A stretch of 32,000 bases of DNA from an archaeon (GCA_041677685.1 JBAYPN010000001.1:19673-51672); one strand, 5' to 3'; numbered from the stretch's first letter, positions 9,556 to 30,063 are shown. Numbers and translations are program-made. Notes: generated from the letters alone by a model not told the origin.

Positions 9556-9562
9556 ACTAAAC

Positions 9563-10713: not shown

Positions 10714-10719
10714 ATGATT

Positions 10720-10884
10720 ATGAGTAAATTAGGTGATTTTATTTCTTCTTCAAGAAGAATATTATCCATATCTAAAAAACCAACAAACAAGGAATTTTGG
10801 ATGATGGCAAAAATAATTGGGTTAGGTATAATTTTAATAGGTGTAGTTGGTTATTTAATAAAACTAATTGTTAGTTTTTTTTAA
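10720..10884 (+). CDS. secE: Protein translocase subunit SecE (Sec61 gamma), 54 aa; absent from the ORF track
   Basis: My translation is MSKLGDFISSSRRILSISKKPTNKEFWMMAKIIGLGIILIGVVGYLIKLIVSFF. It fits the archaeal SecE pattern (R-x-L...KKPT-x-x-E-F...AK...G...GY-I). The position between ftsZ and spt5 is the canonical archaeal one. Confidence 0.88.
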   Translation: MSKLGDFISSSRRILSISKKPTNKEFWMMAKIIGLGIILIGVVGYLIKLIVSFF

Positions 10885-10899
10885 GATGGTGGAATAGAT

Positions 10900-11337: not shown

Positions 11338-11458
11338 ATTAAACAGATTTAAAATAATTTAAATTTAAAAGAACAATTAAAAAACCTAAAAAATCAAATA
11401 ATTAAGAACAAATTTAAAAATAAAAAAAAGAATTAAAAATTAAGAGAGTGATTATAAA

Positions 11459-11929
11459 ATGGCTACAATAAATGTTTTAGTTGATGGTGGAAAAGCAAAT
11501 GCAGGTCCGCCAATTGGTCCAGCTTTAGGTCCTTTAGGAATAAATGCTATGGATGTTGTAAATGCAATTAATGAGAAAACAAAAGATTTACAAGGTATAC
11601 AGATTCCTGTAAAAATAATTATTGATAATAAGAAAAAATTCACAATTGAGGTTGGGTCTCCTCAAACAAGTGCTTTAATAAAAAAAGAACTAAATTTAAA
11701 GACTGCAACTGGAAAGGCAGGAACTGAAGTTACAGGAAATTTAAGTTTTGATCAAATATTAAAGATATCAAAAGCAAAATTCCCACAACTAATTTCTAAA
11801 GAACAAAAGTCAGCAGTTAAAGAGATTGCAGGGTCTTGTAGAACAATGGGTGTTACTATTGACAACCTACCTATTAAAGAAGTAATTAAATTAATAGATC
11901 AAGGAACTTATGATTCTAAGTTTTCTTAG
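11459..11929 (+). CDS. rpl11: Ribosomal protein uL11
   Basis: GGKANAGPPIGPALGPLGINAM signature. AGTGAT SD 6 nt upstream. Confidence 0.95.
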   Translation: MATINVLVDGGKANAGPPIGPALGPLGINAMDVVNAINEKTKDLQGIQIPVKIIIDNKKKFTIEVGSPQTSALIKKELNLKTATGKAGTEVTGNLSFDQILKISKAKFPQLISKEQKSAVKEIAGSCRTMGVTIDNLPIKEVIKLIDQGTYDSKFS

Positions 11930-11930
11930 A

Positions 11931-11945
11931 TTTTTTCTTTTTTTT
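11931..11945 (+). terminator. Oligo-T tract (T6 C T8) immediately after the rpl11 stop, an archaeal-type terminator candidate
   Basis: ttttttctttttttt read directly after TAG 11927-11929. Archaeal RNAP terminates at oligo-T runs. Confidence 0.55.
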
Positions 11946-11971
11946 AAAAACAATAGGTTTTTAAGTATTTA

Positions 11972-11992
11972 ATCTATCTATATTAGATAGAT
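11972..11992. promoter_or_regulatory. Perfect 9-bp inverted repeat with 3-nt centre (ATCTATCTA-TAT-TAGATAGAT)
   Basis: Read directly. It lies about 45 nt upstream of the TTG 12036 start, between the rpl11 terminator tract and TATA-like atctatataag. Confidence 0.5.
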
Positions 11993-12035
11993 ATATTTTA
12001 ATAATATCTATATAAGTAAAAAGACGGTGATTTTC

Positions 12036-12551
12036 TTGAAAAAAAGTTTATTTATAATTATGTTTTTATTATTTTTTACAACAAGTGTTTTTGCATATAC
12101 TGATTATGGGATAGTTGATCTTAAAGTGCCTACGAGTATAGTTTCTGGGCAAGAATTAGAAGTAAATATTACTTTAGCAAACAATAGTTCTTCAGAAGCT
12201 ACCATTCCTTTAAGTATAATGATCTATTCCCCTTCTGCTAATCTTGTTTTTGATGTTGATTATTCTGTTACAATTTCTTCAGATTCAAGTTCTATAGAAA
12301 CATATTTTCTTGATATTGATCAAAATAGTTCTACACAACCTTATCTTTTAAGAGCTTCAATTGAGGAACAAGCAGGTAATCAAAGTAATAATATGTCCTC
12401 TGTTTACTTTACAATAAGAAAGGGTGCTTCAAAAATTCCTGTCCCTGACTTACCATATTTCTTGCCAATCATATTAGTTGTGTTTGTTGCTTTCTTTATC
12501 TTTTCTAGAAAAGAGCAGAAAAGAAAACATAAAAGAGTTGTAAGAAAATAA
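12036..12551 (+). CDS. Secreted, C-terminally anchored protein (possible CARDB-like beta-sandwich)
   Basis: TTG 12036 lies 5 nt after GGTGA (12026-12030); the listed GTG 12027 is inside that SD. Signal peptide MKKSLFIIMFLLFFTTSVFA, a Ser/Asn-rich ectodomain (DLKVPTSIVSGQELEVNITLANNS) and a C-terminal TM plus KRKHKRVVRK tail. Confidence 0.7.
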   Translation: MKKSLFIIMFLLFFTTSVFAYTDYGIVDLKVPTSIVSGQELEVNITLANNSSSEATIPLSIMIYSPSANLVFDVDYSVTISSDSSSIETYFLDIDQNSSTQPYLLRASIEEQAGNQSNNMSSVYFTIRKGASKIPVPDLPYFLPIILVVFVAFFIFSRKEQKRKHKRVVRK

Positions 12552-12743: not shown

Positions 12744-13658
12744 ATGAGTTTAGAAATTTTAAAAAAATCAGGAAAGATAAGCCTAGAGACACATAAGTTT
12801 GCAAAAAAGATAATTAAGCCAGGAGTTGACTTATCAAAGGTTGGTAGAAAGATTGATGACTTTATAATTGAGAAAGGAGCTTTTCCTGCTTGGCCAGTCA
12901 ATCTCTCAGTAAACAATGAAGCTGCACATAACAGCTATGATCTAGAGAAAGAAAGAATACTTTTAGAAGATGATGTTTTAAAAGTAGACATAGGTGTTTC
13001 TATTGATGGACACATCACAGACTCTGCCCAAACCCTAATCTTTAACAACAAACATCAAAAACTAAAAGATGCAAGCTTTCAAGCTCTAAAAGCAACTAAA
13101 GACTTCTTGATAGATAATTACAAGAATGCAAAAATTTCAGATGTTGGAAAAATAATTGAAAATAAAATTAAAGAATTTGGATTTTTACCAGTTGCAAATC
13201 TTACAGGACATTACCTTGCACAATATGTTGCACATAACTCTCCTTCAATTCCAAATGTAGATAATTTTATGCAAGAGAAGTTTAGTGATTATGAGGAACC
13301 CTTTGCAATAGAACCATTTGCAACAACTGGAAGTGGGTTTGTTCATGAAGGCACAGATCTTTTAATCTTTGAACATGCTGAAGATCGAGCAATAAGAAAC
13401 AAAGATGCAAAAAAATTGTTAGAAGAGATTAAAGAATTTAAAGGACTTCCTTTCTCTGAATTCTGGATAGGAAAAGACATGTCTTCTTTTTCAAGAAAAT
13501 TTGCTTTAAGAGAATTAATTAAAAATGAAATCATCTACGGTCATCCAGTCTTAATTGATGTTAAGGGAAGTTATGTTTCTCAAGCTGAAACAACTTTTAT
13601 TATCTCAAAAGAAGAAGGATTAATTGATTTAGTAGGAATTGATGCAATTGAGCAGTAG
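12744..13658 (+). CDS. map: Methionine aminopeptidase, type 2 (archaeal)
   Basis: AFPAWPVNLSVNNEAAHNS and DDVLKVDIGVSIDGHITDSAQT match the MetAP2 metal-site regions. AGTGAA SD 6 nt upstream. Confidence 0.9.
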   Translation: MSLEILKKSGKISLETHKFAKKIIKPGVDLSKVGRKIDDFIIEKGAFPAWPVNLSVNNEAAHNSYDLEKERILLEDDVLKVDIGVSIDGHITDSAQTLIFNNKHQKLKDASFQALKATKDFLIDNYKNAKISDVGKIIENKIKEFGFLPVANLTGHYLAQYVAHNSPSIPNVDNFMQEKFSDYEEPFAIEPFATTGSGFVHEGTDLLIFEHAEDRAIRNKDAKKLLEEIKEFKGLPFSEFWIGKDMSSFSRKFALRELIKNEIIYGHPVLIDVKGSYVSQAETTFIISKEEGLIDLVGIDAIEQ

Positions 13659-14661
13659 TAACGTTTTTTCAAAATATAGTTTTTTAAAAATGTTTTTAAT
13701 AACTTTCTCTATTCTTATTTGGTCATATTTTCTAATTGCCTCTAATGTTTCTTTGAAGTTGTTAGCAATCTTTGATCTTCCTTCAATTGCAAATACTCTT
13801 TTTACTTTTAATTTTTTATTCTTTTTATTATTGTTTCCATTAACTTCCTCAATCTGTATAGCCATGTCAACTGGAAGAGAAAGAAACGTAGACCTTATAG
13901 AAATTTCAATTGGGATCTTTGTAGGTTTTATTTTAGCTTACCTTCTGTTTGGAGCAACAGCTCACTTTTTACTTTTTGGATTATTATATTTATTAGCACA
14001 CATAGTTCTTTCAATTTTAACATATAACAAATTTGAAGAAAGAACAAAGATTAGTGTTTTATCAAACTATGCAAATTCTAAAATCAGTATACTCTTAACA
14101 GTTGTAATCTTAATTATCTGTTTAATAGTAATCTACCCTTCTCAAGAGGATTATGCTTTAGGTATGCAAGTAGGAGTTGTAAACATGTTTGTTGGAGATG
14201 ATATTAGTAATTGGTTGGGCACTTCATACAATATTGGACAGGTAAGCACAAAGGCAGCTCTAGAGTTTGTAACTGACTCTTCTGAATATAAAGACTTGGA
14301 GAAAGTAAATGATCCAAAGGTTACCAATTTTACAAACTTTATTGTGGATACAAAATTAGATGTTAGCTCTAAAAAGACAAGTGAAGAAATAAAAAAGGCT
14401 TTTCCTGACCTAAATGATGTAACTTTAAAAAACCAAATCTTAGAAACATTCAATTCAATGCCAATAATGATTGTTATTCAAAAATATTTTGCAATAATCT
14501 TTGCAGTCATCTTTGCATCAGTTGCTCAATTGTATTTTGCAATTGCCTTCTCTTTATTTGGTTTACTTTTTGTTTATATTTTTTATAAGTTACTTGCAAG
14601 TAGAGTTGATGAGCAAGAAGACTCTGGAGATGTTGATGAAAATAATTTGAATGAAACATAA
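13642..14661 (+). CDS. Polytopic membrane protein, function unknown (start uncertain: ATG 13642, 13690 or 13864)
   Basis: Long ORF with N- and C-terminal hydrophobic helices flanking a soluble middle region, and an acidic tail. No SD is seen at any candidate start. Confidence 0.6.
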   Translation: MQLSSSNVFSKYSFLKMFLITFSILIWSYFLIASNVSLKLLAIFDLPSIANTLFTFNFLFFLLLFPLTSSICIAMSTGRERNVDLIEISIGIFVGFILAYLLFGATAHFLLFGLLYLLAHIVLSILTYNKFEERTKISVLSNYANSKISILLTVVILIICLIVIYPSQEDYALGMQVGVVNMFVGDDISNWLGTSYNIGQVSTKAALEFVTDSSEYKDLEKVNDPKVTNFTNFIVDTKLDVSSKKTSEEIKKAFPDLNDVTLKNQILETFNSMPIMIVIQKYFAIIFAVIFASVAQLYFAIAFSLFGLLFVYIFYKLLASRVDEQEDSGDVDENNLNET

Positions 14662-15019: not shown

Positions 15020-16384
15020 ATGAAAAAAATAGTGTTGATTTTATTTTCAATAATTTTAATTACCAATTCTGTTTTTGCAATATCTTTGTTTACTGCGCAA
15101 GACATCTCTAAAAATTATTTGTTTGAAAATGAAATGGTTGATAGCTTCTCTCAACCTGCAATTGTTTGTGAAGAAGAAACCTTCTTTGTAATTCCAATCA
15201 TCAATTCTGGACAAGAGATTTCTTTTTTTGTACCTGTCTCTTTTGAATCTGGGGAAGTCTTTCTAAGTAAAGACTCAGAGAAAAACATTAGCCTAACAAA
15301 GACAAGCTACCTTCTAAAGAAATTATCCTATTCAGACACAAGCAATTATCTTTCCTCTCAACTGATTGACAAGATCGACAAACTAATAAGTGAGCTTAAT
15401 TCTAAAAAATCAAGACTCGAAGGAGTAATTGATTCTGATTATTCTTATGAAACTAAACAAGCAGTAACCAACTCTAAAAACAAAATTGTAAACTTAATAA
15501 ATAGCTTAACAGAAATTAAAGAAAATCTATATGTTCTTTTAGAAAAACAACAGGATTTTAGATATTTGCCAACATGTAAAAAAACAGAACCATTATTATC
15601 TTTATTTTATAGTTCCTTTAAAGGTTATTCAGAACTTCCAAACAAGCTATCAGAATATACTTTGTCTGTTGAAAATGCAATTAAGATAATTGTTTCTGAT
15701 TCTGTTCTTGATGATATTTCAAAAAGAAGTGTCTTAGATTTTATTTCTGTTCCAAACAATCTAAATTCAGAAATTAATTCAATTTATAATTATCTATCTT
15801 CTACCTCCTCATTCTATGCAAACATTAAAGAAAAGTTGACTGGGACTGTTGGAAGAAACAACATGCAATTGTATATTGATAATCTAGGATATAGAAAAAA
15901 CTTTGTTCAAGTAAGAGCCTTGTTATATAATTATGATCCTGACTTGCCTAAGTATGCAAACCTTGACTCAGCAATCAAAATGATCTTAAATTCAGAATAT
16001 AGACTTTATTGGAAGAACCAAGAGCTAGTTGATGACTTGCAAAGTAGATACTCAATTCTTCAAGAAAATTATGCTGTAGGAAAGATAAGTGGTTCTCTTA
16101 ACAACAGTAACAACAAAGGTGATGATGGGGGAGGTGGGGGGCTAATGGAGATGAAATTGATTAAAAAGAATGTGCTACTGATTTTAGGGGATGGTGTCGA
16201 GGATTACACGTCTGTTACTAGTCCCGTAGCATATTTTATAGTGGGTAGTATGCTTCTTTTGTTAGTCATAGTTTTTATAATATATTCAAGAAGGAAAAGA
16301 AAATCTTCAAAAAAACTTTCTAAGTCTAAAAAAGATTTTGTAAAAGAAGATGATTTTTATAATGATGATTTTCCTTTCAATTGA
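15020..16384 (+). CDS. Secreted, C-terminally anchored surface protein, function unknown
   Basis: Signal peptide MKKIVLILFSIILITNSVFA, a long Ser/Asn/Leu-rich helical-looking ectodomain, a Gly5 linker, TM VAYFIVGSMLLLLVIVFIIY followed by RRKRKSSKK. TGA stop. Confidence 0.7.
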   Translation: MKKIVLILFSIILITNSVFAISLFTAQDISKNYLFENEMVDSFSQPAIVCEEETFFVIPIINSGQEISFFVPVSFESGEVFLSKDSEKNISLTKTSYLLKKLSYSDTSNYLSSQLIDKIDKLISELNSKKSRLEGVIDSDYSYETKQAVTNSKNKIVNLINSLTEIKENLYVLLEKQQDFRYLPTCKKTEPLLSLFYSSFKGYSELPNKLSEYTLSVENAIKIIVSDSVLDDISKRSVLDFISVPNNLNSEINSIYNYLSSTSSFYANIKEKLTGTVGRNNMQLYIDNLGYRKNFVQVRALLYNYDPDLPKYANLDSAIKMILNSEYRLYWKNQELVDDLQSRYSILQENYAVGKISGSLNNSNNKGDDGGGGGLMEMKLIKKNVLLILGDGVEDYTSVTSPVAYFIVGSMLLLLVIVFIIYSRRKRKSSKKLSKSKKDFVKEDDFYNDDFPFN

Positions 16385-16480: not shown

Positions 16481-18496
16481 TTAGAAACTTTCTGTTTTTT
16501 TGTAAGCAGTTAATAACTTTTTAAATTCAATATAGTCTTTTGGTGGTTTTTTAGTCAAGTCTTCTATAAAGTTCTTTCTGTTTGTTATAATTTCCATAAG
16601 TTTATTTCTATTAACATTATATTCAATTGCAATTTCTTTTAGAATTTCACTATTGTAGATAAGAGGTAACTTGCTTGTAAAAAGATCACTTTCCATAGTA
16701 GCACCTTTTTCTTTGTATTTGTTAATTGATTTGTACACAGCATCATATTCTATCTTTTTATCTTTAGCATTATATCCTCTAATCTCATCAATTTCTTTAA
16801 CTTCTCTTCTACCTTCTCCAATTCCAGCAAAACCAGTTACAACAACAATATCTAAGCTAGTTAGAAGTGACATGTCTAAGGAGATTGGAGGAGTTGTTAG
16901 CCTTGTTACCAAAGACTCCACACTCTTTGCGTGAACAGTTGATAAAGAACAGTGACCAGATGCCATTCCCTGGAACATTAAAGCCATTTCTTCTCCTCTT
17001 ACTTCACCAATAATTAAATAATCTGGTCTTTGTCTAAATGATTCTTTTAACAGATCATTCATTGTAACTTCACCATATTTTTTTCCACTACTATCAGGTG
17101 GTCCAAAACCAGGTCTTGTTATTTGAGGGATCCAGTTTTCCATTAGAAGATTAATTTCTCTAGTGTCCTCAATTGAAACAACCCTTTGTGCAGATGGAAT
17201 AAATGATGACACAACATTTAGTAGTGTTGTTTTTCCACCAGCAGTTGGTCCAATAAAGATCATGTTTTTTTTAAATTCTAATAGTGTCCAAAGGTAAGCA
17301 ACAACTTCAGAAGTTACTGTTCCACTATTTACAATATCAATTGTTGTTAATGGCTTTTGAGGGAACTTTCTAATTGTAAAGGTTGGACCTCTTGTTGCAA
17401 CATTTGATGTTAAAATTGCATTAACACGAGAACCATCTGGTAAAATTGCATCTAGAAGAGGAGAGGCATATGAAACATAACTTTTACAAAGATGAGCCAT
17501 TTTGATTACAAATTGTTGAAGTTCATTTTCTGTTTCAAATTTTATGTTTGTAACAATGTGTCCATATTTTCTATGAACAATAAAGATTGGTATGTTTGTA
17601 CCATCACATTCAATATCTTCAATTAGGTTATCATGCATTAGTGGTTCAATTTTGTCAAGACCACTAACCTGTCTAATAATGTAATATACAATTTTGTCTT
17701 TTTGGCTTTTATTTAATATCACTTTATTTTTTAAAAAGATTTTATCAATTAAAGAATACATCTGCATTTCATTTGAGAGGTCAGCAAGAGAGATTTTGTT
17801 TATCAATGCATTTTTAGTTTCTTCTAAAACCTTTTTTTCATAAGCATTAAGTTCTGGTTCTGCAACAGTGTAGACTCTTTCTTCTTTCTCTTCATCTACA
17901 AAGGCATATGCAAACCCTGGGATCAATATTTGGTAATTTTCAGGTTTAAGTTCTTTTGGTGGTTCAAATGCAGGAGTTATTTGTTTGATGTCTGCTCTTA
18001 CTTGTTTAATTTTAATTTCTGGTTTACTATTAAATAAGTTTTTAATAAAATCAAAATTGATTAATGATTTTTTAGGTTCAGGCACAATTTCAGGTTTAGT
18101 AATTATTTCTCCTTTAAGTGCTTTTTTGTCAACAGTCTGTTTTACCTTCTTAGTAACTTTTGGTTCTTCTTTTGGAGGATGTAAAAGTTTACTAATAAAA
18201 GATTTTCCTTTAATATCGTAAATTGGAAAGTCAGCTAAGCTTAGTTCTTTTGTAAGCTTAGAAAAAATATGATTATATTCAATTAATTTAACTATGGCTT
18301 CTGCATCTTTTTTTTTAGAGCTTGAAAGAAGTTTTTTTTCTTTAAGCTTAAGAAGTAGTTCTTTTGGTGTAATTGTCTTATTGTATAATTTATTAAAAAG
18401 TTCTGAGTCTAGAGGATCTCTACTATTTTCTATATCCTTTAGCTTTTTTATTGTTTCTACAAAATCTTTTAGAGCTTTTGGTGATGGGAAAATCAT
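16481..18496 (-). CDS. Type II/IV secretion-family ATPase (GspE/FlaI/PilB-like) with an N-terminal extension of about 185 aa
   Basis: Walker A GPTAGGKTT, Walker B/Asp box DYLIIGEVRGEE and His box GHCSLSTVHA. A FlaI-like N-domain begins near YQILIPGFAYAFVDEEKEERVYTVAEPEL. Confidence 0.88.
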   Translation of the reverse strand: MIFPSPKALKDFVETIKKLKDIENSRDPLDSELFNKLYNKTITPKELLLKLKEKKLLSSSKKKDAEAIVKLIEYNHIFSKLTKELSLADFPIYDIKGKSFISKLLHPPKEEPKVTKKVKQTVDKKALKGEIITKPEIVPEPKKSLINFDFIKNLFNSKPEIKIKQVRADIKQITPAFEPPKELKPENYQILIPGFAYAFVDEEKEERVYTVAEPELNAYEKKVLEETKNALINKISLADLSNEMQMYSLIDKIFLKNKVILNKSQKDKIVYYIIRQVSGLDKIEPLMHDNLIEDIECDGTNIPIFIVHRKYGHIVTNIKFETENELQQFVIKMAHLCKSYVSYASPLLDAILPDGSRVNAILTSNVATRGPTFTIRKFPQKPLTTIDIVNSGTVTSEVVAYLWTLLEFKKNMIFIGPTAGGKTTLLNVVSSFIPSAQRVVSIEDTREINLLMENWIPQITRPGFGPPDSSGKKYGEVTMNDLLKESFRQRPDYLIIGEVRGEEMALMFQGMASGHCSLSTVHAKSVESLVTRLTTPPISLDMSLLTSLDIVVVTGFAGIGEGRREVKEIDEIRGYNAKDKKIEYDAVYKSINKYKEKGATMESDLFTSKLPLIYNSEILKEIAIEYNVNRNKLMEIITNRKNFIEDLTKKPPKDYIEFKKLLTAYKKTESF

Positions 18497-18518
18497 AATT
18501 TACCTTTTTTACTTTCCC

Positions 18519-18872
18519 TTAGTTTTCACTGTTCTCAATAATCTTTGGAGTTCCTTCTACCTCAGATTTGGTATTGTACAAATTTTTTAAAGTAGTTAGT
18601 TTATCACTAATACCATTTACATTTTCAGCAATCTCATTCCAGATTCTTTTTCTCTCATTTGTGTTTTCTTCTAAGTTTTTAAGATTTAATTCTTGCATTT
18701 TAGCATATGTAAATTTTGTAATTGTTTCATTTTTTAATTTATCTTTAGCCTTTTTAATTTCAGAATCAATTCCTTCCTTTTGTTCTTCTAAGGTTCTTAG
18801 AATTTCTAAATGAGCTGTAATTCCATTGCTTTTATCTTCAATTATGTTAATCATATCTTTTACTTCTGACAT
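18519..18872 (-). CDS. Small coiled-coil protein, function unknown, probably co-transcribed with the ATPase
   Basis: ATG 18872 lies 5 nt after AGGTGT (complement of 18878-18883); the listed GTG 18881 is inside the SD. The sequence is heptad-like and rich in K, E, L and N. There is a 22-nt gap to the ATPase start. Confidence 0.65.
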   Translation of the reverse strand: MSEVKDMINIIEDKSNGITAHLEILRTLEEQKEGIDSEIKKAKDKLKNETITKFTYAKMQELNLKNLEENTNERKRIWNEIAENVNGISDKLTTLKNLYNTKSEVEGTPKIIENSEN

Positions 18873-18998
18873 TTTATACACCTTTTTATGTTTTAATTAA
18901 TATTTATTTTCTTATCAATATAGTATATTAAGATAATATATCATATCATTTATAAATTTATCTATTTTTAAAGTCATTAATTTTAAGTAATTTCAATT

Positions 18999-19511
18999 TT
19001 AATCTATAATTAATATTTTCTCCCCCAAACTAGATTCAAAGTTATTAAATATTGTTCTAGTGGAGTTATCTGTTAAAGAAAGAAAATAGATGTTTTTGTT
19101 TGGAGAATTATAATCAAGAACACAATTGTTATTTAGGTAAAGATAATCAGGGTTACTACTCTTTCTAACTCTGATTGTTTGCTTATTATTAACACCATTA
19201 AATTCCTCTCCTAAAAAGTTACTAACATAAATAAAATCATTTCCAGCATCAACTATTGAGCATAAGCTAACTTGGTAGTTATGGGACTTTATAAAATCAT
19301 AAAAATTAGAATTAAAATTATTTAAAATATTTTCGTCTAAACCACTTTCAAGAATCTTTTCAAACTCAATAACATAATTTCTAGAAATGTTATATGGTTG
19401 GTTATTAATTTCAATCATTGGCTTAAATAACAAAAGGTACATACTTATAAATAAGATGAAGATTACTGTAATTATAATGTAGGTAAAACCTCTTTCTTTT
19501 AATCTATCCAT
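18999..19511 (-). CDS. Prepilin-like protein (class III signal peptide candidate), 170 aa
   Basis: N-terminus MDRLKERG|FTYIIITVIFILFISMYLLLF has a short basic leader, a small residue, then a hydrophobic helix of about 20 aa. The start overlaps the upstream gene by 13 nt. Confidence 0.6.
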   Translation of the reverse strand: MDRLKERGFTYIIITVIFILFISMYLLLFKPMIEINNQPYNISRNYVIEFEKILESGLDENILNNFNSNFYDFIKSHNYQVSLCSIVDAGNDFIYVSNFLGEEFNGVNNKQTIRVRKSSNPDYLYLNNNCVLDYNSPNKNIYFLSLTDNSTRTIFNNFESSLGEKILIID

Positions 19512-19867
19512 GAAATAACACTTAAAGTTTTATTACTATCAAAGAAATAATAATCAACAACACTTAGCTTAGAATCACTTGGAACTGTTTCTCCAAACTC
19601 TTCACAATTTAGGTTTTGGGAGTTACAGATCTTAATTGAGTAGGTGGTGTCTAGGCTCTCATATAAAGAATTATAAACATCTTCAATTTCTGAACCACTA
19701 ACTAAATCTCTAAAATCTGAATTTTTTGCTTTTGCAAGTAGAAGGCTATAATTTTTATTTGTAAGTTCATTATAATTTGTTTGAGGTTTTTCTACAGATT
19801 GAAAAACAATTATAACAAATAGGAATAAAATTGTAATTGCGATAACTACTTCTAAAGACTTAATCAT
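19499..19867 (-). CDS. Prepilin-like protein (class III signal peptide candidate), 122 aa
   Basis: N-terminus MIKS|LEVVIAITILFLFVIIVFQS has a K-S leader followed by a hydrophobic helix. Small size. Confidence 0.6.
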   Translation of the reverse strand: MIKSLEVVIAITILFLFVIIVFQSVEKPQTNYNELTNKNYSLLLAKAKNSDFRDLVSGSEIEDVYNSLYESLDTTYSIKICNSQNLNCEEFGETVPSDSKLSVVDYYFFDSNKTLSVISWID

Positions 19868-19971
19868 AGGTTCTCTTTTAAAATTTTATTTTAATTATAA
19901 TTATTTTTTTTAACTTTTAATTCTTTATCTTAGATGTTAATTTTTATCTTTTTAGATTTTATTTTTTAGTT

Positions 19972-20964
19972 TTACTTCAACATCCCTGAGATCATGTTTT
20001 CAATTATTGAAAAGTAACCAGTCTCATCATCCTCTTCAATTAAGTATTCAGGAGGAAGTGCATAGTAGACAACCCTGTTGGAGTTACTAACAACAATTAA
20101 AGGGAAAACTCCATTTTGACCAAAAGAAACATCTTTATCTATATTATTATATAAATTTGAACCAAAGTCTAACTTTAGAGGAGTCACTACTGGTCTTAGT
20201 AGCTCAACTATCGCAAAATCATCTTTTGTTGGTAAGTAGTCCTTTAAAGCATAGACAAGAGGATGTTTTGAGGAAGGCACTAACTTTCCATTTATGTGGT
20301 CAGGATATTTTATTATGATTGTTTGATTATTATAGCCTGGAACCTTATATTCTTTTTCTATACATTCTTTAATTTGGCAATAGGTTGTTATATATCTAAC
20401 TTCTAAAAATTCATCAAATCTTATCATATAATTATCATTATTTAATCTTGCCCAACCTCCGATAATGTTAGAGTCATAAGTTCCTTCAATATCTCCTGTT
20501 GTTAAAAGTTTATCTTCATTTTTTGAAATCTCTGTTCCTGCATCTCCAATCCAGATAAGTCTTCCACCTTTAGAGACATAGTTCATAAAAGTCTCTAAGT
20601 TTTTGGTAGAGATTTGTTTTGCTTTTTCAACAATTACTAAACTATAGCCATTTAGCTTTTCAGGGCTTAGGTAGTTTATATTCTCAATTGCAGGATGAAC
20701 TCCAACTCTTTTATTATCCTCTAGGGTTTTTTTAAGAAGGTAAGGGTTTCCAAGCCCATCAACATCATAAGGATCATAAACAATTAAGACAGATGGTTGA
20801 CTCTTTCCTGTAATCAGGCTTTGAGAACCCCAATAGATCCCACATAACCCAGGAACTTTACTACATCTTATGTTTCCTGTCCAGGTAAATAGGTAGAGAG
20901 CAATAAATAAGATTACAATTATTATAAGGATTTTTGTTAACAGTTTTTTTCTTTTTGGACTCAT
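19972..20964 (-). CDS. N-terminally anchored extracytoplasmic protein, unknown function (possible ThuA/DUF4350-like alpha/beta fold)
   Basis: Signal anchor MSPKRKKLLTKILIIIVILFIALYLF. The segment SLVIVEKAKQIS...FMNYVSKGGRLIWIGDAG resembles GATase1-like or DUF4350-type surface proteins, by eye only. Confidence 0.55.
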   Translation of the reverse strand: MSPKRKKLLTKILIIIVILFIALYLFTWTGNIRCSKVPGLCGIYWGSQSLITGKSQPSVLIVYDPYDVDGLGNPYLLKKTLEDNKRVGVHPAIENINYLSPEKLNGYSLVIVEKAKQISTKNLETFMNYVSKGGRLIWIGDAGTEISKNEDKLLTTGDIEGTYDSNIIGGWARLNNDNYMIRFDEFLEVRYITTYCQIKECIEKEYKVPGYNNQTIIIKYPDHINGKLVPSSKHPLVYALKDYLPTKDDFAIVELLRPVVTPLKLDFGSNLYNNIDKDVSFGQNGVFPLIVVSNSNRVVYYALPPEYLIEEDDETGYFSIIENMISGMLK

Positions 20965-21086
20965 TTTTAAATAACTCTTCTCTTTTATATTTTTTAGTTT
21001 ATTATATTAGAAAGGTAAGGTATTTAATTATAACTTATCTTATATTATTTATATTAATATAATATTTTTAAAAAAGGTGTGTTTTT

Positions 21087-21251
21087 ATGAAATTAAGACA
21101 AACAAAAAGTGATTCTCAAGGTCCAAGTTCCTCAATTGGAATTATGAAATTTAATGATTCTTTATCAGGTCCAAAGTTAAGTCCTGAGTTTGTGGTTGGT
21201 GCTAGTATTTTTTTTGTAATTTTGATTGTTGTTTTAAAAGTTGTTTTATAG
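21087..21251 (+). CDS. secG: Protein translocase subunit Sec61 beta (archaeal SecG), 54 aa; absent from the ORF track
   Basis: My translation is MKLRQTKSDSQGPSSSIGIMKFNDSLSGPKLSPEFVVGASIFFVILIVVLKVVL. It fits the archaeal Sec61beta pattern (S-x-G-I/L-x-K/R-F/Y-x-D...P-E-x-V plus a C-terminal TM). AGGTG SD at 21075-21079. Confidence 0.85.
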   Translation: MKLRQTKSDSQGPSSSIGIMKFNDSLSGPKLSPEFVVGASIFFVILIVVLKVVL

Positions 21252-21266
21252 TTGCTAGCTTTTTCT

Positions 21267-24200
21267 TTAGTTAGGTTTAATAACAACTCTTACAATTTCT
21301 TCTTCACCATTTTCATTTAGGTAGGTGGTGTATCTTTCTAAGACTTTTGAAACATTAAAATTGTTTTTTCCTTTTTCTAAGTTTAAAGTTTTTTCTTGGT
21401 TAGTTATTGAAAGATAATAGTCATCTAAGGTATATAGTCTTAGGCTATCTGTTTTTGAATTTAAATTTAGAATATTATTTGGTATTTTAATTTGGAAATT
21501 AACAAGATTATTTTGAGAATTATTTGTAATTGCAATTTCGTAAAGATTTGTGTCTTGTTCTTTGACTTCTATGGTAGGTGTTACAGGTGTGTATCTTCTT
21601 ACAAATATATAATCTAAGTTTCTTGGTCCCCCAGAACCATCTGAATATTCTCCTTGAGAGATTAACAGATGTTTATGTGTGTTTATAAAGTTAGCATCAA
21701 TTGCTGAGCCTAAAAGTGAGTTGTTTTTTCCCCAAATAATGTTTCCATCAGAAGAGTAGGTGTAATTAAGTTTATGCCACTCTGCAAGTGGTTGTGAGAC
21801 TCCTGAGATAAGTTTAAGTCTAGTTTTAAGAGAATTTTCTATATGGAAAATAGAAAGGGAACTTGTTGTTTGCCAATTAAAAAAATAACCATTCTCGTAA
21901 GAAGTGTACCAATAGGCAATTCCTGGCATCTCTATATTTTCAAAAATCATTCCATCCCCAATTGAGAAGTCATTATAGTTTGATGAACTTATTTTGTTTT
22001 TGATCTCAACTACAAAATCATTTTTAAAAGTTTTTAGGGACTGTATGCTTGCTGAGGAGGCAACTGCTGGTTCTCCTGCAAGAGTCAACTCTCCTGAGTC
22101 AACAGAAATGATTGCATTTTGGGAACCAAATTTTTGTTCTTCCCATTTATCTGTGTCTAAGATAGTTTCTTCAAAGTCATCAAATAGTTCAAAAACTTTT
22201 TCTCCATTTGGAAGATAATCTTCCTCTTTAGAAACATATATCTTTTTAGTTTCACCTGAAGGTATATTTACTTTTGTCCAAAGACTATATTCTGAGTTGA
22301 AGTCTTCTATAAAGTAGGGAAGGTTTTTTGAAAAAAGATCAAGTAAATCTAATTTTTCTTTAGTTATTATATTTTCTTTAGTTTTTATAATATTTATTTT
22401 TGGATAATTGTTTTGTATCTCTGTTCTTGAAAATCTTAACTTTACAGTTGCATCATCTTGACAATTGTTAATGTTTATGTTTCCATTAGAAGATGCTGTA
22501 AGATCACAATCAATGGTGTTATTATATTTATCAAAAAAATTAAAAACTACATTTTCATTATTGTTGTTTGTAAATTTTAAAGAACTATTTTTTTTAAAAT
22601 AATCATTTGTTAAGACCAAACTCTCTGATTTAGAGGCAATTTCAAGAATGTTGTTTGGAATTTTAATTTGGAGGTTGTTAAGATCATTAGCAGTGTTATT
22701 AGTTATGTCAACTTTGTAAGTATTATTATTTATATAAGAAACATTTATTGTTGGTTGTGTAGAAACATATTTTCTTACAAAAACATAATCTGAGGTAATT
22801 GAGGTTGGTGTAGTATCTCCATCTGTAGAATAATAAATTGGAAGTGAGTAGTTAGGAACATATAATTTGTTTGTTTGTGTGTATTGTAGACTTTGATTTT
22901 TATAGATTTTAAGATTCTCTTGAGAAATCAATTCTGCATTGTAAACAGCATAGATGCTTGGATCATGAGAAACTGAATTGTTAGAAATTAAATTTGTTCC
23001 AAAAGCAAAAGATAAAGCTGAACTTTTATCATCAACCTTTCCATACCAACTAAAACCATCTGTTAGGCTGTCATTGTGAAGAATTGGCTTATAAGGTTGA
23101 CTAGCATAACCAAATAATGTTGCATAACCCCCACTTTTCATCTTAGACCTAACTGTTAAGACTTTTCCAAAAGTCATATGATCTATATTTGAAAAGATCC
23201 CAAGATATTCTTCTTTTGTGCTAGTAACATTAGTTATTATTAGTTCTCCAGAATTTACAACAATGTCCCCAAACTCAGTTCCAAACTTGTTCCATTTTTG
23301 TGTGTCTAAAGATGTTCCATCAAAGTCATCAAAAAAATCAAAAACTTCATCTCCATTAGGTGTGTTAGTTCCTTCTTTTGACAAATAAATAGTTTTTGTT
23401 TCATTTCCTTTAAGATCTACTTTTGTCCAAACATATTTGTTAGTTCCATCATCTTCAATATAGTAATCATAATCTTTTGGTTGTAAGATGTTTGAAGAAA
23501 TGTTTAAATCTTCTTCTTTGTTAATATTAAACCAAAATTCATTTGAGTTTGGAAATATGGTGGCCCTTGTAACATTCTCTTCATCTTTAATATTTATGAT
23601 TTGATTATTAGGATTGTAACTTAGATTTGAGAAAAAATTTAAATTAAAATCAAAGCCTAAAGCATTTATTTGTAAAACATTATTTTCAACATTTACATTT
23701 AGGTCAGTAGTTTTAATTTGGTTATTAATAGTATCTACAACCAAGTCAGAATTTTTATAAATTTTAAAATTATCAACATATGTGTTTGTGTCGTTTGCTT
23801 CTATTTTTATGTAACTTTGGTTTTGATCTAAGTTATTAGTAGTTGTTATTAATTGTTTATTGATTCCACAAAAAACATCATTTCCAACAAAACCAAAAGA
23901 AACATTATTCCATTCTTTTGTTTTTGTGTAATCTATAAAGCCAACTTTGGTAATTGTTCCATTTAAGTTTTCAAAAACAGAGACATCTTCATTAGTAACT
24001 TCACAAAAATAATAGTTATCTAAATCTATATAATTAAAATAGACATTAATGTTGTCTGCTTTAAAATCAAGAGAGCCTGTGTAATCTAAGAAGGAAGAAT
24101 TGGTTTTAAGACTTACCATATTGTTTAGATTAAGAGAACCATTTGAAAAGGTTAGTGCTCCTTGCTCTAATAAAAAAGTATCTAAGTAATTGTAGTCTTC

Positions 24201-24557
24201 AAAGTCCTCATTAACCAGCATTATTTTATTTGTGTTAATATCATATGCTTCAAAGTTATAAAATTTAGTTTTATTTTGCACAAGCCCATAAGCAACATTC
24301 CCTTCAACAACACTAATTCCAGCACTTCTACCAAAATTGTTTTCTAGGGGTATAGAAAAGGGGTGTATTTGTAAGTCATTATTATTAATAACTGTGTAGG
24401 TGTTAATCTCTTCAAAGAGATTAGAATAAACACTTTTAGCAGTATATGTGTTTTCTTGTAAATTAATATCTGGTAAAAAATTAGGTAGAGCTATAATTAT
24501 CCCAACAAAGACAATTATAAAAATTCCAAAAGACATTACCCAATCTACATATTCCAT
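21267..24557 (-). CDS. 1096-aa N-terminally anchored surface protein with tandem DUF2341-like plus LamG/concanavalin-like modules (putative adhesin or lectin)
   Basis: N-terminal TM FGIFIIVFVGIIIAL. Two paralogous modules are present. The first reads YIEDDGTNKYVWTKVDLKGNETKTIYLSKEG...FDDFDGTSLDTQKWN...DYVFVRKYVSTQPTI...LQIKIPNNIL. The second reads YFIEDFNSEYSLWTKVNIPSGETKKIYVSKEE...FDDFEETILDTDKWE...DYIFVRRYTPVTPTI...FQIKIPNNIL. Many N-x-S/T sequons. Confidence 0.8.
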   Translation of the reverse strand: MEYVDWVMSFGIFIIVFVGIIIALPNFLPDINLQENTYTAKSVYSNLFEEINTYTVINNNDLQIHPFSIPLENNFGRSAGISVVEGNVAYGLVQNKTKFYNFEAYDINTNKIMLVNEDFEDYNYLDTFLLEQGALTFSNGSLNLNNMVSLKTNSSFLDYTGSLDFKADNINVYFNYIDLDNYYFCEVTNEDVSVFENLNGTITKVGFIDYTKTKEWNNVSFGFVGNDVFCGINKQLITTTNNLDQNQSYIKIEANDTNTYVDNFKIYKNSDLVVDTINNQIKTTDLNVNVENNVLQINALGFDFNLNFFSNLSYNPNNQIINIKDEENVTRATIFPNSNEFWFNINKEEDLNISSNILQPKDYDYYIEDDGTNKYVWTKVDLKGNETKTIYLSKEGTNTPNGDEVFDFFDDFDGTSLDTQKWNKFGTEFGDIVVNSGELIITNVTSTKEEYLGIFSNIDHMTFGKVLTVRSKMKSGGYATLFGYASQPYKPILHNDSLTDGFSWYGKVDDKSSALSFAFGTNLISNNSVSHDPSIYAVYNAELISQENLKIYKNQSLQYTQTNKLYVPNYSLPIYYSTDGDTTPTSITSDYVFVRKYVSTQPTINVSYINNNTYKVDITNNTANDLNNLQIKIPNNILEIASKSESLVLTNDYFKKNSSLKFTNNNNENVVFNFFDKYNNTIDCDLTASSNGNININNCQDDATVKLRFSRTEIQNNYPKINIIKTKENIITKEKLDLLDLFSKNLPYFIEDFNSEYSLWTKVNIPSGETKKIYVSKEEDYLPNGEKVFELFDDFEETILDTDKWEEQKFGSQNAIISVDSGELTLAGEPAVASSASIQSLKTFKNDFVVEIKNKISSSNYNDFSIGDGMIFENIEMPGIAYWYTSYENGYFFNWQTTSSLSIFHIENSLKTRLKLISGVSQPLAEWHKLNYTYSSDGNIIWGKNNSLLGSAIDANFINTHKHLLISQGEYSDGSGGPRNLDYIFVRRYTPVTPTIEVKEQDTNLYEIAITNNSQNNLVNFQIKIPNNILNLNSKTDSLRLYTLDDYYLSITNQEKTLNLEKGKNNFNVSKVLERYTTYLNENGEEEIVRVVIKPN

Positions 24558-25784: not shown

Positions 25785-27248
25785 ATGGAAAACACAGAAA
25801 AAAAAACAATTGTAAGAAATATTGGTTGGTTGACAATCTCTAAGGTATTTGTTTATCTTCTTTCAATTGTAACTATAACACTTATTCCTAGATATTTAGG
25901 TGTTGAGGGTTATGGTCAACTTAACTTTGCTTTATCTTTTGTTTCTTTGTTTGCTGTTTTTTTTGATGTTGGGACTGGTATTTTAATTTTTAGAGATGTT
26001 AGTAGGAAAAAAGCTTTATTAAGTAAATATTTTAATAATTTTTTCTATTTTAAGATCTATTTGTATATTTTGTTTTTTGTGGTAATAGTTTTAATTACTT
26101 TACTTTTGCCTAAACTATTAATTGTTAAAGTTTTAATAGTATTACTTGCAATTAACTTGATTGCACAATCAATAGCTGGATATTTGGTAGTTTATTTAAA
26201 TTCTTTTGAGTTAATGAAATTTTCATCAATAAAAGAAGTGTTACTTAAGTTATTGATTGTTATATTTATAATTTTAGTTGTTTTTTTAAACTTGAAGATA
26301 ATTGGTGTGGCTTTAGCTTATATTTTATCCTCAGTTATTGTTCTATTTTACATTATATATGTCTTTAAGAAAATGTTTAAAAGTAAGATAAAATTTAAAC
26401 CAGTTTTTAAGAAAGGCTTTTTATTAAGTAAACTAAAACTATCCTATCCTTTTGCCTTAACTACAATCTTTGGAGTTATTTATTTTAATTTTGATAAGTT
26501 TATGATATCTTTTATGTTAAATGATTATCAGGTTGGGTTATATTCTACAGGTTATACTTTTTATGGGTTTTTGATTGGAATTATTGCTTTATTTTCCACA
26601 GTATTTTTCCCAATCCTTTCTAGAAACTATAAAAGTAGTAGGTTTAAGGGAATACTTGACAAATATTCAAGAATAATAATAGTTTTAGCTTTGCCAATGG
26701 TTTTTGGGGTAATCTATTTAGCAAAAGATATTATTAGGTTAATTTTTGGAAAAGACTTTGTTATTGGATTTATTGCTTTTCAGGTAGTTATTATTTTCTT
26801 TTTAATAAATGCATTTAATCAGATCTTTAATAATATATTAACTATTCATAATTTGCAAAAATATTTATTTAAATTATTCTTAATTGCAGCAGTCGTAAAT
26901 GTTGTATTAAACTTTATTGCAATTCCTTTGTTTGGGATTGTTGGAGCAGCAGTAACAACTGTTTTGTCAGAGTTAATAATATTTGTTGGAATGTATGTAA
27001 AGGTAAGTAAGAATATAGTCAAGTTTGGTTTCTTTAGAAAGTTAGTAATTCCTTTTATCTCTTCTATTCTTATGTTGTTTGGGATTTATTTAGTAAAGGA
27101 TGTTTTAAAGGTGGTTGTAATTAATAACTCCTTAAACGTATTATTTTATTGTTTGGTTGGTGGACTGTTTTATGTGTCATTTATTTTTATGTTTAGATAT
27201 TTTAAGGTTAAAGAGATCTTTAGTTTGTTAAAAGAGGTAAGGAAGTAG
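25785..27248 (+). CDS. Polysaccharide/oligosaccharide flippase (MOP superfamily, Wzx-like)
   Basis: 487 aa with about 12-14 hydrophobic helices. The N-terminal VRNIGWLTISKVFVYLLSIVTITLIPRYLGVEGYGQLNF is typical of Polysacc_synt family proteins. A glycosyltransferase neighbourhood lies nearby. Confidence 0.8.
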   Translation: MENTEKKTIVRNIGWLTISKVFVYLLSIVTITLIPRYLGVEGYGQLNFALSFVSLFAVFFDVGTGILIFRDVSRKKALLSKYFNNFFYFKIYLYILFFVVIVLITLLLPKLLIVKVLIVLLAINLIAQSIAGYLVVYLNSFELMKFSSIKEVLLKLLIVIFIILVVFLNLKIIGVALAYILSSVIVLFYIIYVFKKMFKSKIKFKPVFKKGFLLSKLKLSYPFALTTIFGVIYFNFDKFMISFMLNDYQVGLYSTGYTFYGFLIGIIALFSTVFFPILSRNYKSSRFKGILDKYSRIIIVLALPMVFGVIYLAKDIIRLIFGKDFVIGFIAFQVVIIFFLINAFNQIFNNILTIHNLQKYLFKLFLIAAVVNVVLNFIAIPLFGIVGAAVTTVLSELIIFVGMYVKVSKNIVKFGFFRKLVIPFISSILMLFGIYLVKDVLKVVVINNSLNVLFYCLVGGLFYVSFIFMFRYFKVKEIFSLLKEVRK

Positions 27249-27345
27249 ATTTTATGAGATTGTTTAAAAAAATAAATTATTTTAAGAATTTAAATAAAAA
27301 ATATAAAAATAATTAATCAGAAAAATTACAAAATGAGTTTAGAAG

Positions 27346-27603
27346 ATGGTTGCATCCTCAAAGCATTTAACATTGAATAATCAAATTCCTGCACAAGTGC
27401 AAGAGTTTTTTAGATACTATAAAATAAATATTATCTCAAAGGATATTACAGCTTATTTATTAACCTTATGAAAATTATGTAAAAATTTTAACCGCAAATG
27501 TTCTGACTATAATGAATTAGACTGAAAATTAGATTTGCACAGTTATGAAACTATTAAATCCCATCACGAAGTGGTGTATCTTGTTTTAAAAGAACACAAT
27601 TAA
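27346..27603 (+). pseudogene. Candidate decayed or recoded ORF: 86 codons interrupted only by two TGA codons
   Basis: ATG 27346 to TAA 27601-27603, with TGA at 27469-27471 and 27523-27525, both in the context TGAAAATTA. No TAA or TAG occurs in 86 codons of very AT-rich DNA. Confidence 0.3.
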
Positions 27604-27791
27604 GCTTTTCTTACGTTAATTGCTTTTTGTCCTTTTTCATCTTCAATAACATCGAAAGAAACTGGCATAGCATCTCTAAGTTGTTCATTGTCAGCAATTC
27701 CTGAACCGTGAACAAAGTAGTCTTTACCATCTTCTCCAGTAATAAAACCGAAGTTTTTGTTAATGTTATAAAATTTTACAGTACCATTCAA
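27600..27791 (-). CDS. csp: Cold-shock domain protein (bacterial CspA family)
   Basis: MNGTVKFYNINKNFGFITGEDGKDYFVHGS carries RNP1-like (NFGFI) and RNP2-like (YFVHG) motifs. 63 aa. TTG start with AGTGA 7 nt upstream. Confidence 0.9.
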   Translation of the reverse strand: MNGTVKFYNINKNFGFITGEDGKDYFVHGSGIADNEQLRDAMPVSFDVIEDEKGQKAINVRKA

Positions 27792-28066
27792 ATTTTTTTC
27801 ACTCTTTTATATATTTTTTTTTATTATATAATAAGTAGGTATAAAGAATTTTAAAAATCATTAAATCAATTTATTAAAAATAGTTTTTATTAGAAAGGAA
27901 CAATATTAAATGCTTCTAGAATTGGAGATTTAAGGTTTTCATTTTTATTAAATATTTTTTAATTCTTTTTATTTGTTTATTTACAATCTTCTTTTTGATT
28001 ACTTATCATACTTATAATAATATTATGGTTTAGAAAAGTATATAAATAGTTTTATTTAGAAATATT

Positions 28067-29236
28067 ATGAAATACTTTAAAATAAAAAGAAATAAGGGAC
28101 TAATTATGAAAATTAATAATAAATATATATTAAAATGCATACACGAAATAATTGAAGAATATCATGAAAATGGGGCAAAATCAAATAAAAATAAAACTAA
28201 CATATATTTGACTAAAATAAGTATGATTACTCCCAAATTTTTAAAAGAAAAGATGTTAAAACCAATGTACAGATTATACCTTAAGCATAATACAAAAACA
28301 AATCCTTTAGAGTATAAATATTCTGAAATTGATCTTAAATGGAGTTTAAACTTTTTAGAATACAGTTTAACACATGAGGTTAATTTTAATTTAGATTTAT
28401 TTGAAAATGATAACGATAAAAAAGAAATAATCAAATTTATAAAAAATAAACTTTACATGGCCTTAAGAGGACAATTATTTACATATAATTTATTTACTGA
28501 GGATGATTTAACTTATTTTAAAAAATATGATGACTTCTTTAGAAAAAATATTAAATTCAAAAATGCAAATTATACTGACATTAATTACAATAACAAAAAA
28601 TACACATTAGCTTCTTCAAATGTAGGCATATCTTCATTTTATCATAACTACGGACTTGATATTATACCTAAAAAAGTAATTTCAAATATTGCTCACAAGA
28701 ACATTTTAGATTGTGGTGCTTTTGTAGGTGATTCTGCATTAATTTTCGAAAAACTAAAACCTAAAAAAATATATTCTTTTGAACCAGATACTAAAAATTA
28801 TCTCAAATTAATAGAAACCATTAAATTAAATAATCTAAATCCACTAATTACTCCTATTAAAAAAGGACTTGGAGATAAAAATAAAAATGTATATTTAGAA
28901 AACGCATTAGATAGTTCTTACATTAAAAAAAATAACTTAAAAACAAAAGATAGTGAAAAAATAGAAATAACAACAATCGATAATTTTATACAAGATAATG
29001 TTGGCTTAATAAAAATGGATATAGAGGGATATGAGTTAGAAGCTATTAAAGGAGCTGAAAAAACAATTAAAAAAAATAGACCAGTGTTATTAATATGCTT
29101 ATACCACACAGGAAAAGATTTTTTTGAAATACCAAAACTAATCAATAAATGGAATTTAAATTATACATATAGATTCTTAAATTTGTATAAAATTCATCCT
29201 ACAAATGAAAGAGTATTAATTGCATATCCCAATTAA
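28067..29236 (+). CDS. FkbM-family SAM-dependent methyltransferase with an uncharacterised N-terminal region of about 200 aa
   Basis: ILDCGAFVGDSALIFEKLKPKKIYSFEPDTKNY and LIKMDIEGYELEAIKGAEKTIKKNRPVLLICLYH match the FkbM pattern. An alternative start is ATG 28103. Confidence 0.8.
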   Translation: MKYFKIKRNKGLIMKINNKYILKCIHEIIEEYHENGAKSNKNKTNIYLTKISMITPKFLKEKMLKPMYRLYLKHNTKTNPLEYKYSEIDLKWSLNFLEYSLTHEVNFNLDLFENDNDKKEIIKFIKNKLYMALRGQLFTYNLFTEDDLTYFKKYDDFFRKNIKFKNANYTDINYNNKKYTLASSNVGISSFYHNYGLDIIPKKVISNIAHKNILDCGAFVGDSALIFEKLKPKKIYSFEPDTKNYLKLIETIKLNNLNPLITPIKKGLGDKNKNVYLENALDSSYIKKNNLKTKDSEKIEITTIDNFIQDNVGLIKMDIEGYELEAIKGAEKTIKKNRPVLLICLYHTGKDFFEIPKLINKWNLNYTYRFLNLYKIHPTNERVLIAYPN

Positions 29237-29257
29237 AGTTGATTAAGGTAAAAGAAC

Positions 29258-30061: not shown

Positions 30062-30063
30062 TT

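Follow-up and report, generated by a model that had tools for sequence, protein, structure and literature searches.

A Probable Two-Locus Type IV Pilus in Iainarchaeota with the Assembly ATPase Encoded Beside a Candidate Adhesin

We analysed a 32,000-nucleotide stretch of archaeal DNA (GCA_041677685.1, JBAYPN010000001.1:19673-51672; hereafter the window, with positions counted from its first letter) in which six minus-strand genes encode an assembly ATPase, three small proteins of 117, 122 and 170 amino acids (aa; F117, F122 and F170), an anchored protein of 330 aa (F330) and a large protein of 1096 aa. This cluster is probably 'locus A' of a two-locus archaeal type IV adhesion pilus in Iainarchaeota, with the platform and the major pilins encoded in a second locus, locus B. 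A preliminary description of the window had presented the cluster as a minimal gene set whose composition matches no known type of locus, a view that did not survive comparison with relatives. Sister clades of 'Candidatus Iainarchaeum' hold the same core together with two TadB/TadC-like genes of the T2SSF family (T2SSFa and T2SSFb), and siblings within the clade of the window keep T2SSFa, T2SSFb and 3-4 canonical pilins in an operon of their own. Because the siblings encode these parts separately, the window set is better read as one half of a split but ordinary type IV pilus system than as a platform-less one.

The cluster encodes an archaeal-type assembly ATPase

The ATPase contains a T2SSE domain (Pfam, E=2.8e-36) and begins with a K-rich extension of ~200 aa. 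A pattern search found its Asp box, Walker B and His box present and intact, and the P-loop (GPTAGGKTT) was read in the sequence. Among structures in the PDB its best match is the Archaeoglobus fulgidus GspE-type enzyme 2oap (E=2.4e-92), followed by FlaI (5.8e-66), CpaF (4e-43) and VirB11 (2e-16), and in bits it scores 314 against afGspE and 63 against VirB11 structures. The NCBIfam models rank the families in agreement with the PDB search (FlaI 325 bits with a cut-off of 550, BasE 195 with a cut-off of 1000, TadA 146, VirB11 115 and TrbB 105), with every score lying under the equivalog cut-off of its model. The GspE/FlaI/PilB-family assignment of the preliminary description is thus borne out by the T2SSE and 2oap matches, and the grouping with conjugative VirB11-type enzymes that it had raised as an alternative is not what the scores give, as ATPases of archaeal pili and archaella are much nearer to the protein than VirB11 is. 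On the strength of these sequence comparisons we assign the ATPase to the archaeal FlaI/GspE type, as a member of the archaeal type IV pilus/archaellum group.

The platform is absent in cis and encoded in a second locus in siblings

Pfam searches of the 27 non-nested window open reading frames (ORFs) of at least 90 aa identified no T2SSF, no Peptidase_A24 and no archaellin or Arl protein. Clade-specific hidden Markov models (HMMs) for T2SSFa, T2SSFb and the pilins likewise returned nothing below E=0.1 in a six-frame translation of the window and ~9 kb of additional upstream sequence, leaving no sign even of a T2SSF or pilin fragment. The preliminary description was therefore correct that a platform, a peptidase and an archaellin/Arl set are all missing from the 32 kb. 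The same holds for the platform in the four siblings examined, L007 (664-kb contig), L008 (688-kb contig), L009 (GCA_028700115.1) and L055, none of which has a T2SSF gene within 10 kb on either side of the ATPase.

In all four siblings the genes follow the same order: the large protein, Sec61-beta on the opposite strand, the 330-, 122-, 170- and 117-like proteins and the ATPase, beyond which lie a convergent gene for a secreted protein of ~450 aa, a gene for a polytopic protein of ~330 aa and then housekeeping genes. The large protein carries DUF2341 in L008 and L009 and is represented in L007 by a homologue without a Pfam DUF2341 match. Since the sibling orthologues of the cluster genes are 56-70% identical and keep this order, the cluster genes are not chance ORFs. 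The conservation of gene order in relatives, which the preliminary description had left to be checked, is therefore confirmed, but because the sibling genomes are collinear over the whole region, their synteny alone says little on function.

The platform of the window clade emerged from a metagenome scan with a T2SSFa profile, which returned the low-GC loci L040-L047 (27-30% GC, compared to 27% for the window) with T2SSFa, T2SSFb and up to four tandem pilins, and without an ATPase in the 1-3 kb read upstream. A profile built from these low-GC T2SSFa proteins retrieved 65 clusters, ~62 of them in one clade, a number comparable to the ~59 clusters of the window ATPase clade. Two other searches, one word-based with T2SSF proteins of sister clades and one a pattern scan of GTDB genomes, had found sister clades only, because the T2SSFa motifs of the window clade (KAETFGDIY, IAGPLF and ILSMSS) differ.

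Three matches tie this T2SSFa family to ATPases of the window type. T2SSFa P0390 lies on CAZGHU010000001.1 (671,531 bp), within positions 392,511-405,386, and the longest contig of ATPase P0007 also measures exactly 671,531 bp; this ATPase has 66% identity to that of the window, and its locus A shows the window gene order. Similarly, T2SSFa P0345 and ATPase P0043 have a longest contig of 281,921 bp in common, and the P0400 T2SSFa locus has a GC content of 21.0%, equal to that of the P0019 lineage. The T2SSFa clusters P0182 and P0184 belong to the window-clade-type T2SSFa family.

The genomic context of locus B is conserved in the three lineages looked up: genes for a methyltransferase and a DRG-like GTPase precede T2SSFa, T2SSFb and 3-4 pilins, with convergent tRNA endonuclease, DUF357 and TP_methylase genes on the other side, and neither an ATPase nor an A24 peptidase is found within 6-8 kb on either side. 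In the siblings L049-L054 locus B always lies between the DRG-like GTPase gene and the convergent tRNA-splicing endonuclease gene (for example L053, 6001-9356). Its pilins are of the DUF1628 type and carry archaeal class III signals (KK[G/A]|[I/V/L]SP[L/I]IATILL); within the window clade, canonical pilins with this signal occur only in the locus B of siblings.

A Cdc6/Orc1-like gene is found a few kb from locus B in L049-L054, so that locus B may lie near a replication origin. Cdc6-like and PCNA genes also lie just upstream of the window, and we considered whether locus B might adjoin them as it does in L049, but the orientations differ and none of the T2SSFa clusters falls on the contigs concerned.

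Sister clades carry the core and the platform in one operon

A T2SSFa profile scan of GTDB genomes returned 16 loci, nearly all from 'Candidatus Iainarchaeum', and essentially all loci that are long enough contain one module consisting of the 122-like and 170-like genes, in part a gene for a 235-aa DUF7289-like pilin (F235), the 117-like gene, the ATPase, T2SSFa and T2SSFb. In at least 15 other Iainarchaeum genomes the 122-, 170- and 117-like genes and the ATPase are directly followed by T2SSFa and T2SSFb, examples being L011 (ENA ERZ27247220 k141_70356), L010/L028 (GCA_043821385.1) and L039 (Ga0315289_10004844). The arrangement extends to distant relatives of the window ATPase (43-52% identity), as both L010 and L011 have the 122-, 170- and 117-like genes and the ATPase followed by two T2SSF genes of ~290 aa each. 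Two to three canonical pilins lie upstream in several of these one-piece loci, and in L039 four pilins follow T2SSFb.

Compared with the one-piece operon, the window clade has the same 122/170/117/ATPase order with a large surface protein ahead of it, whose N-terminal motif is common to L010. It differs in that T2SSFa and T2SSFb do not directly follow the ATPase, in that the F235 gene present in many one-piece loci is missing, in the gain of the 330-aa gene, and in the placement of platform and pilins in a separate operon. By gene content and order, the core of the window locus is thus a pilus operon conserved in Iainarchaeota, of which a two-part TadB/TadC-like platform is normally a part. 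In a neighbour-joining tree of ATPases the window clade (56-68% identity) forms a monophyletic group whose sisters are the clades with T2SSF in cis, which makes the split of the operon the derived state.

The small proteins conserved beside the ATPase

A scan of N-termini across the window found a pilin-kind class III-like N-terminus only in the 122- and 170-aa ORFs; the sole other match to the scan, at 12027-12551, reads as an ordinary secretory signal. The preliminary description had assigned class III N-termini to both small proteins, which fits F170 well and is doubtful for F122. F170 begins MDRLKERG|FTYIIITVIF, a class III-signal-like sequence that runs into a hydrophobic helix, and the motif [KR]G|F[TVA][YF]I is kept both within the window clade and by L010. 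F170 is therefore the best minor-pilin candidate of the cluster and likely a minor pilin.

The N-terminus of F122 is strongly conserved as well (MIK[S/T/V][L/V/F]E[A/V].IA followed by a hydrophobic helix) and weakly matches that of GspI (E=0.021), and its gene lies directly upstream of that of F170 in most of the complete Iainarchaeum type IV pilus operons read. Its standing as a prepilin is doubtful nevertheless, as judged by the residue at its putative cleavage site (see below), and the protein may be leaderless or simply membrane-anchored. We favour for it a role as a pilin-like protein or as a bitopic accessory protein or assembly factor.

F117 is directly upstream of the ATPase, ending 22 nt from the start of the ATPase gene, and adjoins the ATPase both in the Iainarchaeum operons and in the Nanoarchaeia locus L012. 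It has no relative in Pfam, NCBIfam or the PDB above coiled-coil noise, and is presumed to be a helical, cytoplasmic accessory protein associated with the ATPase. The homologue in L012 extends the F117 family beyond Iainarchaeota. L012 (GCA_025920425.1) has two ATPase-plus-T2SSF loci within ~8 kb, at 500-2011 and 8001-12010, and in one of them the F117 homologue lies between the ATPase and T2SSF genes.

The large DUF2341 protein and F330

The 1096-aa protein begins MEYVDW and has a single hydrophobic helix at residues 6-24. Pfam identifies DUF2341 in two stretches (E=5.9e-19), and the protein contains a tandem duplication in which aa 361-654 match aa 744-1048 with 33% identity (E=2e-35). The lengths of its orthologues range from 610 to 2211 aa, and what they conserve is the ME[Y/H][I/V]DW motif, the hydrophobic helix and roughly the first 100-400 aa; the longest, in L010, combines the same N-terminal motif with FG-GAP/LamG domains. 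Sequence and profile searches of the PDB gave nothing meaningful for the window protein. Of its preliminary description as a membrane-anchored lectin-like protein, the anchor helix is confirmed, while 'lectin-like' comes down to the two DUF2341 matches and the internal duplication.

DUF2341 proteins encoded in archaeal type IV pilus loci are predicted to be PilY1-like tip adhesins (Makarova et al. 2016, PMC4858521), and a DUF2341 gene of the epd locus of Methanococcus maripaludis came up in a transposon screen for mutants defective in transformation (PMC10133366). The 1096-aa protein is accordingly predicted to be a fast-evolving adhesin associated with the pilus.

In F330 a positively charged N-terminus and one hydrophobic helix precede a large domain. 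Its orthologues are 56-59% identical, with four invariant cysteines (C34, C41, C196 and C201). It has no sequence match in the PDB, and its HMM found no match in Iainarchaeum loci outside the window clade. Three orthologues give sub-threshold matches to ABC_transp_aux (E=0.014-0.053) and one a match to IFT52_GIFT (E=0.098) over the same stretch, a weak lead towards a possible GIFT/GldG-like domain.

Comparison with known systems

Among the Epd genes of Methanococcus, epdL encodes the ATPase and epdJ and epdK are TadC-like genes. The Epd pili of M. maripaludis (clade 1 of Makarova, Koonin and Albers 2016) resemble the system described here in having DUF2341 proteins beside minor pilins and two TadC-like genes, and in the distribution of their parts over separate loci with the major pilin encoded apart (PMC4858521; PMC10133366). 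However, epdJ, epdK and epdL lie together at one locus (PMC10133366) and the eppA peptidase gene lies in the pilin locus, whereas the ATPase gene of the window has remained beside those for the minor pilins and the adhesin, with no EppA or other peptidase gene nearby. The PilB3-PilC3 system of Haloferax volcanii (euryarchaeal clade 2) likewise has PilA-like major pilins and parts in trans whose products interact across loci, with two tadC genes frequent in this group (PMC4858521), but in clade 2 systems it is the pilins that are detached from an intact ATPase/TadC unit, while the window clade has separated the ATPase from TadC.

The bacterial Tad/Flp systems have in common with the Iainarchaeota system two half-size T2SSF proteins of ~290 aa each and an ATPase that the window enzyme matches (CpaF, see above). 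They differ in that the Iainarchaeota pilins are of the archaeal DUF1628 type and not Flp, the ATPase is nearer to archaeal enzymes, and there is no secretin (RcpA), TadZ or TadD. In the archaellum locus, arlF and arlG are found upstream of the ATPase gene. The archaellum thus resembles the window in having small anchored proteins upstream of an ATPase of the same superfamily, but the Iainarchaeota platform consists of two short T2SSF proteins where the archaellum has the single ArlJ, the FlaI score of the window ATPase stays under the cut-off, and neither the window nor the sibling loci A and B contain ArlH, ArlF/G, ArlC/D/E/X or archaellins. Pfam and NCBIfam scans of the window proteins also identified no Ups-, Aap- or Bas-specific families, and the literature searched is silent on pili in either Iainarchaeota or Forterrea.

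Archaeal systems with two tadC genes, and systems with some of their parts in trans, have both been documented (Makarova et al. 2016, PMC4858521). What is unusual in the window clade is which joint broke, as the ATPase was kept with the minor-pilin and adhesin genes and not with TadC; this is a matter of gene organisation and not a new mechanism.

Weighing the two-locus pilus against alternatives

Several observations weigh against the two-locus pilus. The T2SSFa of the window's own organism was not located, as none of the 65 clusters lies on the 93-, 69- and 65-kb contigs that bear its ATPase and checking accession numbers gave no match between T2SSFa and the window organism. The co-location of P0007 and P0390 is deduced from identical contig size and sources, the look-up of P0007 having returned a different assembly, and neither the window nor the genes called in the locus A and locus B flanks read yielded an A24 prepilin peptidase. 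With regard to the small proteins, the putative -1 residue of F122 is S, T or V and not G/A, and hhalign comparisons with canonical pilins are not significant for F122 (1.8%) or F170 (4-14%), in contrast to the 235-aa family, which matches pilins at 94%. Single-sequence AlphaFold2 models are confident only in the N-terminal helix of F122 (mean predicted local distance difference test score, pLDDT, 50) and in residues 1-30 of F170 (mean pLDDT 44).

The missing platform of the window organism is also what would be expected if the cluster were a truly platform-less minimal filament or adhesion machine, or one that works with an unrelated membrane partner such as the 340-aa polytopic protein encoded two genes from the ATPase. 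The empty searches of the window with its ~9 kb extension and of the ATPase flanks in four siblings fit such a machine, as do the conservation of the ~7-8-transmembrane (TM) 340-aa protein and the precedent of Thermoproteales systems, which use unrelated 4-5-TM proteins in place of TadC (Makarova et al., PMC4858521). We nevertheless consider it very unlikely, as siblings of the same clade carry T2SSFa and T2SSFb orthologous to those in the ATPase operons of sister clades. The 340-aa protein itself was tried as a diverged TadC and rejected: it reaches 2.6% against T2SSF in hhalign, has no Pfam or NCBIfam match, and is encoded convergently to the ATPase by a gene that overlaps an M24 peptidase gene by 20 nt and that was absent from the flanks read around one-piece operons. 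In a narrower version this species alone would be devoid of any TadC-type gene, with the ATPase, F117 and the two pilin-like proteins acting independently of a platform or with another partner, for instance in adhesin display. In a milder version the ATPase and the 117-, 122- and 170-aa proteins would make up a self-contained unit for priming and adhesin display, under its own regulation and without precedent among archaeal type IV pili. We give the two versions jointly a slim chance.

A decaying remnant, in which the ATPase half became non-functional after the operon broke, appears extremely improbable. It would account for an ATPase that lies apart from the platform genes in an arrangement not described for archaeal loci by Makarova et al. 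(PMC4858521), but all six ORFs and the ATPase motifs are intact, and the identity and gene order kept among siblings (ATPases at 56-68%) argue against decay. ATPases of the T2SSE family also power type IV secretion systems (T4SS), and the best NCBIfam model for the window ATPase is that of archaellum FlaI; even so, a conjugative or VirB11-type secretion system or an archaellum-derived system is scarcely credible. VirB11 scores far below afGspE, the FlaI score remains well short of its cut-off, no other T4SS-type families turned up in Pfam scans of the window, and FlaH, FlaF/G, FlaC/D/E and archaellin are found neither in the window nor in locus B. Finally, the same pilus could serve mainly for DNA uptake (natural transformation) or for surface or biofilm adhesion and not for host attachment, which differs from the reading we prefer only in the substrate bound. 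Members of the DPANN group with reduced genomes may depend on scavenged nucleotides, which counts for DNA uptake. We regard this use as unlikely, since the locus holds no hint of DNA binding or transport, and a large, fast-varying adhesin with a conserved N-terminal module and variable domains fits the recognition of a variable surface.

If the cluster is locus A of a two-locus pilus, a prepilin peptidase encoded elsewhere would trim the pilins, and the ATPase with its 117-aa partner would dock on the T2SSFa/T2SSFb platform and drive polymerisation of the PilA-like pilins of locus B. The small proteins of locus A would serve to prime or cap the filament and would display the variable adhesin; the adhesin would then bind a surface, most plausibly that of a host cell. 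A dependence on physical host contact is generally assumed for DPANN archaea, and few of their attachment structures are known. A function of the two-locus pilus in host attachment is plausible, and the adhesin together with the 117-, 122-, 170- and 330-aa proteins provides concrete candidates for DPANN host attachment.

What emerges from the comparison is a pilus system present across many Iainarchaeota genomes and composed of the ATPase, two TadB/C-like proteins and PilA-like pilins, to which are added three uncharacterised conserved accessory families and the fast-evolving DUF2341 adhesin. It also calls for caution in annotation, as core parts that seem to be 'missing' may lie in trans.

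Organism, cluster layout and neighbouring genes

The window is AT-rich (GC content as given above) and carries archaeal housekeeping genes, namely PheRS, MetRS, aIF5A, PolB, aIF2B, FtsZ, Spt5 and L11. Proteins identical to those of the window occur in many metagenomic contigs and metagenome-assembled genomes (MAGs) labelled 'archaeon' or 'Candidatus Iainarchaeum sp.', and Iainarchaeota are part of the Nanobdellati (formerly DPANN). The DPANN-like organism proposed earlier is thus an Iainarchaeota archaeon, as supported by the identical proteins in Iainarchaeum MAGs and by taxonomy. No tRNA or Rfam family was found within the 32-kb window.

All six minus-strand ORFs lie where the preliminary description had placed them (Table 1), and a single hydrophobic helix lies at the N-terminus of each of the 1096-, 330-, 122- and 170-aa proteins, while F117 has none. 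The gene of the large protein and the unit beginning with F330 had been called adjacent; their coordinates stand, but the Sec61-beta gene sits between them on the plus strand. Because this translocon gene intervenes, the adhesin gene is set apart from the other pilus genes.

Table 1. Positions of the cluster genes and of other features in the window
Feature	Position	Strand	Basis or remark
GspE/FlaI/PilB-family ATPase, 671 aa	16481-18496	-	T2SSE domain
F117, 117 aa counted from ATG, E/K-rich, helical	18519-18872	-	ORF
F170, 170 aa, class III-signal-like N-terminus	18999-19511	-	ORF, conserved motif
F122, 122 aa, N-terminal helix	19499-19867	-	ORF, conserved N-terminus
F330, 330-aa anchored protein	19972-20964	-	ORF, found in window clade only
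Sec61-beta, 54 aa	21087-21251	+	Conserved at the same spot in all siblings examined (L007-L009, L055)
DUF2341 large protein, 1096 aa	21267-24557	-	ORF and Pfam
Duplicated ~300-aa modules of the predicted adhesin	21414-22328 and 22596-23477	-	Each starts with a DUF2341 domain
Secreted protein, 454 aa, C-terminal TM anchor and basic tail	15020-16384	+	Weak GGIII-CTERM-like match
Polytopic protein, 340 aa, ~7-8 predicted TM segments	13639-14661	+	Convergent to ATPase
Lysine-rich ORF, 144 aa	24721-25155	-	TTG start
Lysine-rich ORF, 116 aa	25196-25546	-	TTG start
Glycan cluster	25785-31768		Beside the adhesin gene
Cold-shock-domain (CSD) gene, 63 aa	~27600-27791	-	Coordinates mapped from L001

Downstream of the ATPase, the genes for the 454- and 340-aa proteins are both convergent to it and both kept in the window clade. 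In two assemblies (L004 and L005) the 340-aa gene is called as a gene of 265 aa with an opposite ORF of 78 aa, an indication that its 5′ end may vary among strains.

Two very lysine-rich ORFs found upstream of the adhesin gene have no family match and no homologue in the sibling loci; further assemblies of this organism annotate them as genes. The glycan cluster encodes a Wzx-like Polysacc_synt flippase, an FkbM methyltransferase, a DUF4422 protein, a GT2 glycosyltransferase and an Asn-synthase-like protein; a flippase and glycosyltransferases likewise adjoin the DUF2341 gene in the siblings L008 and L009. These surface-glycan genes may be related to glycosylation of the pilins or of the adhesin. 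Finally, a small cold-shock-domain gene is called in the matching contigs L001-L003.

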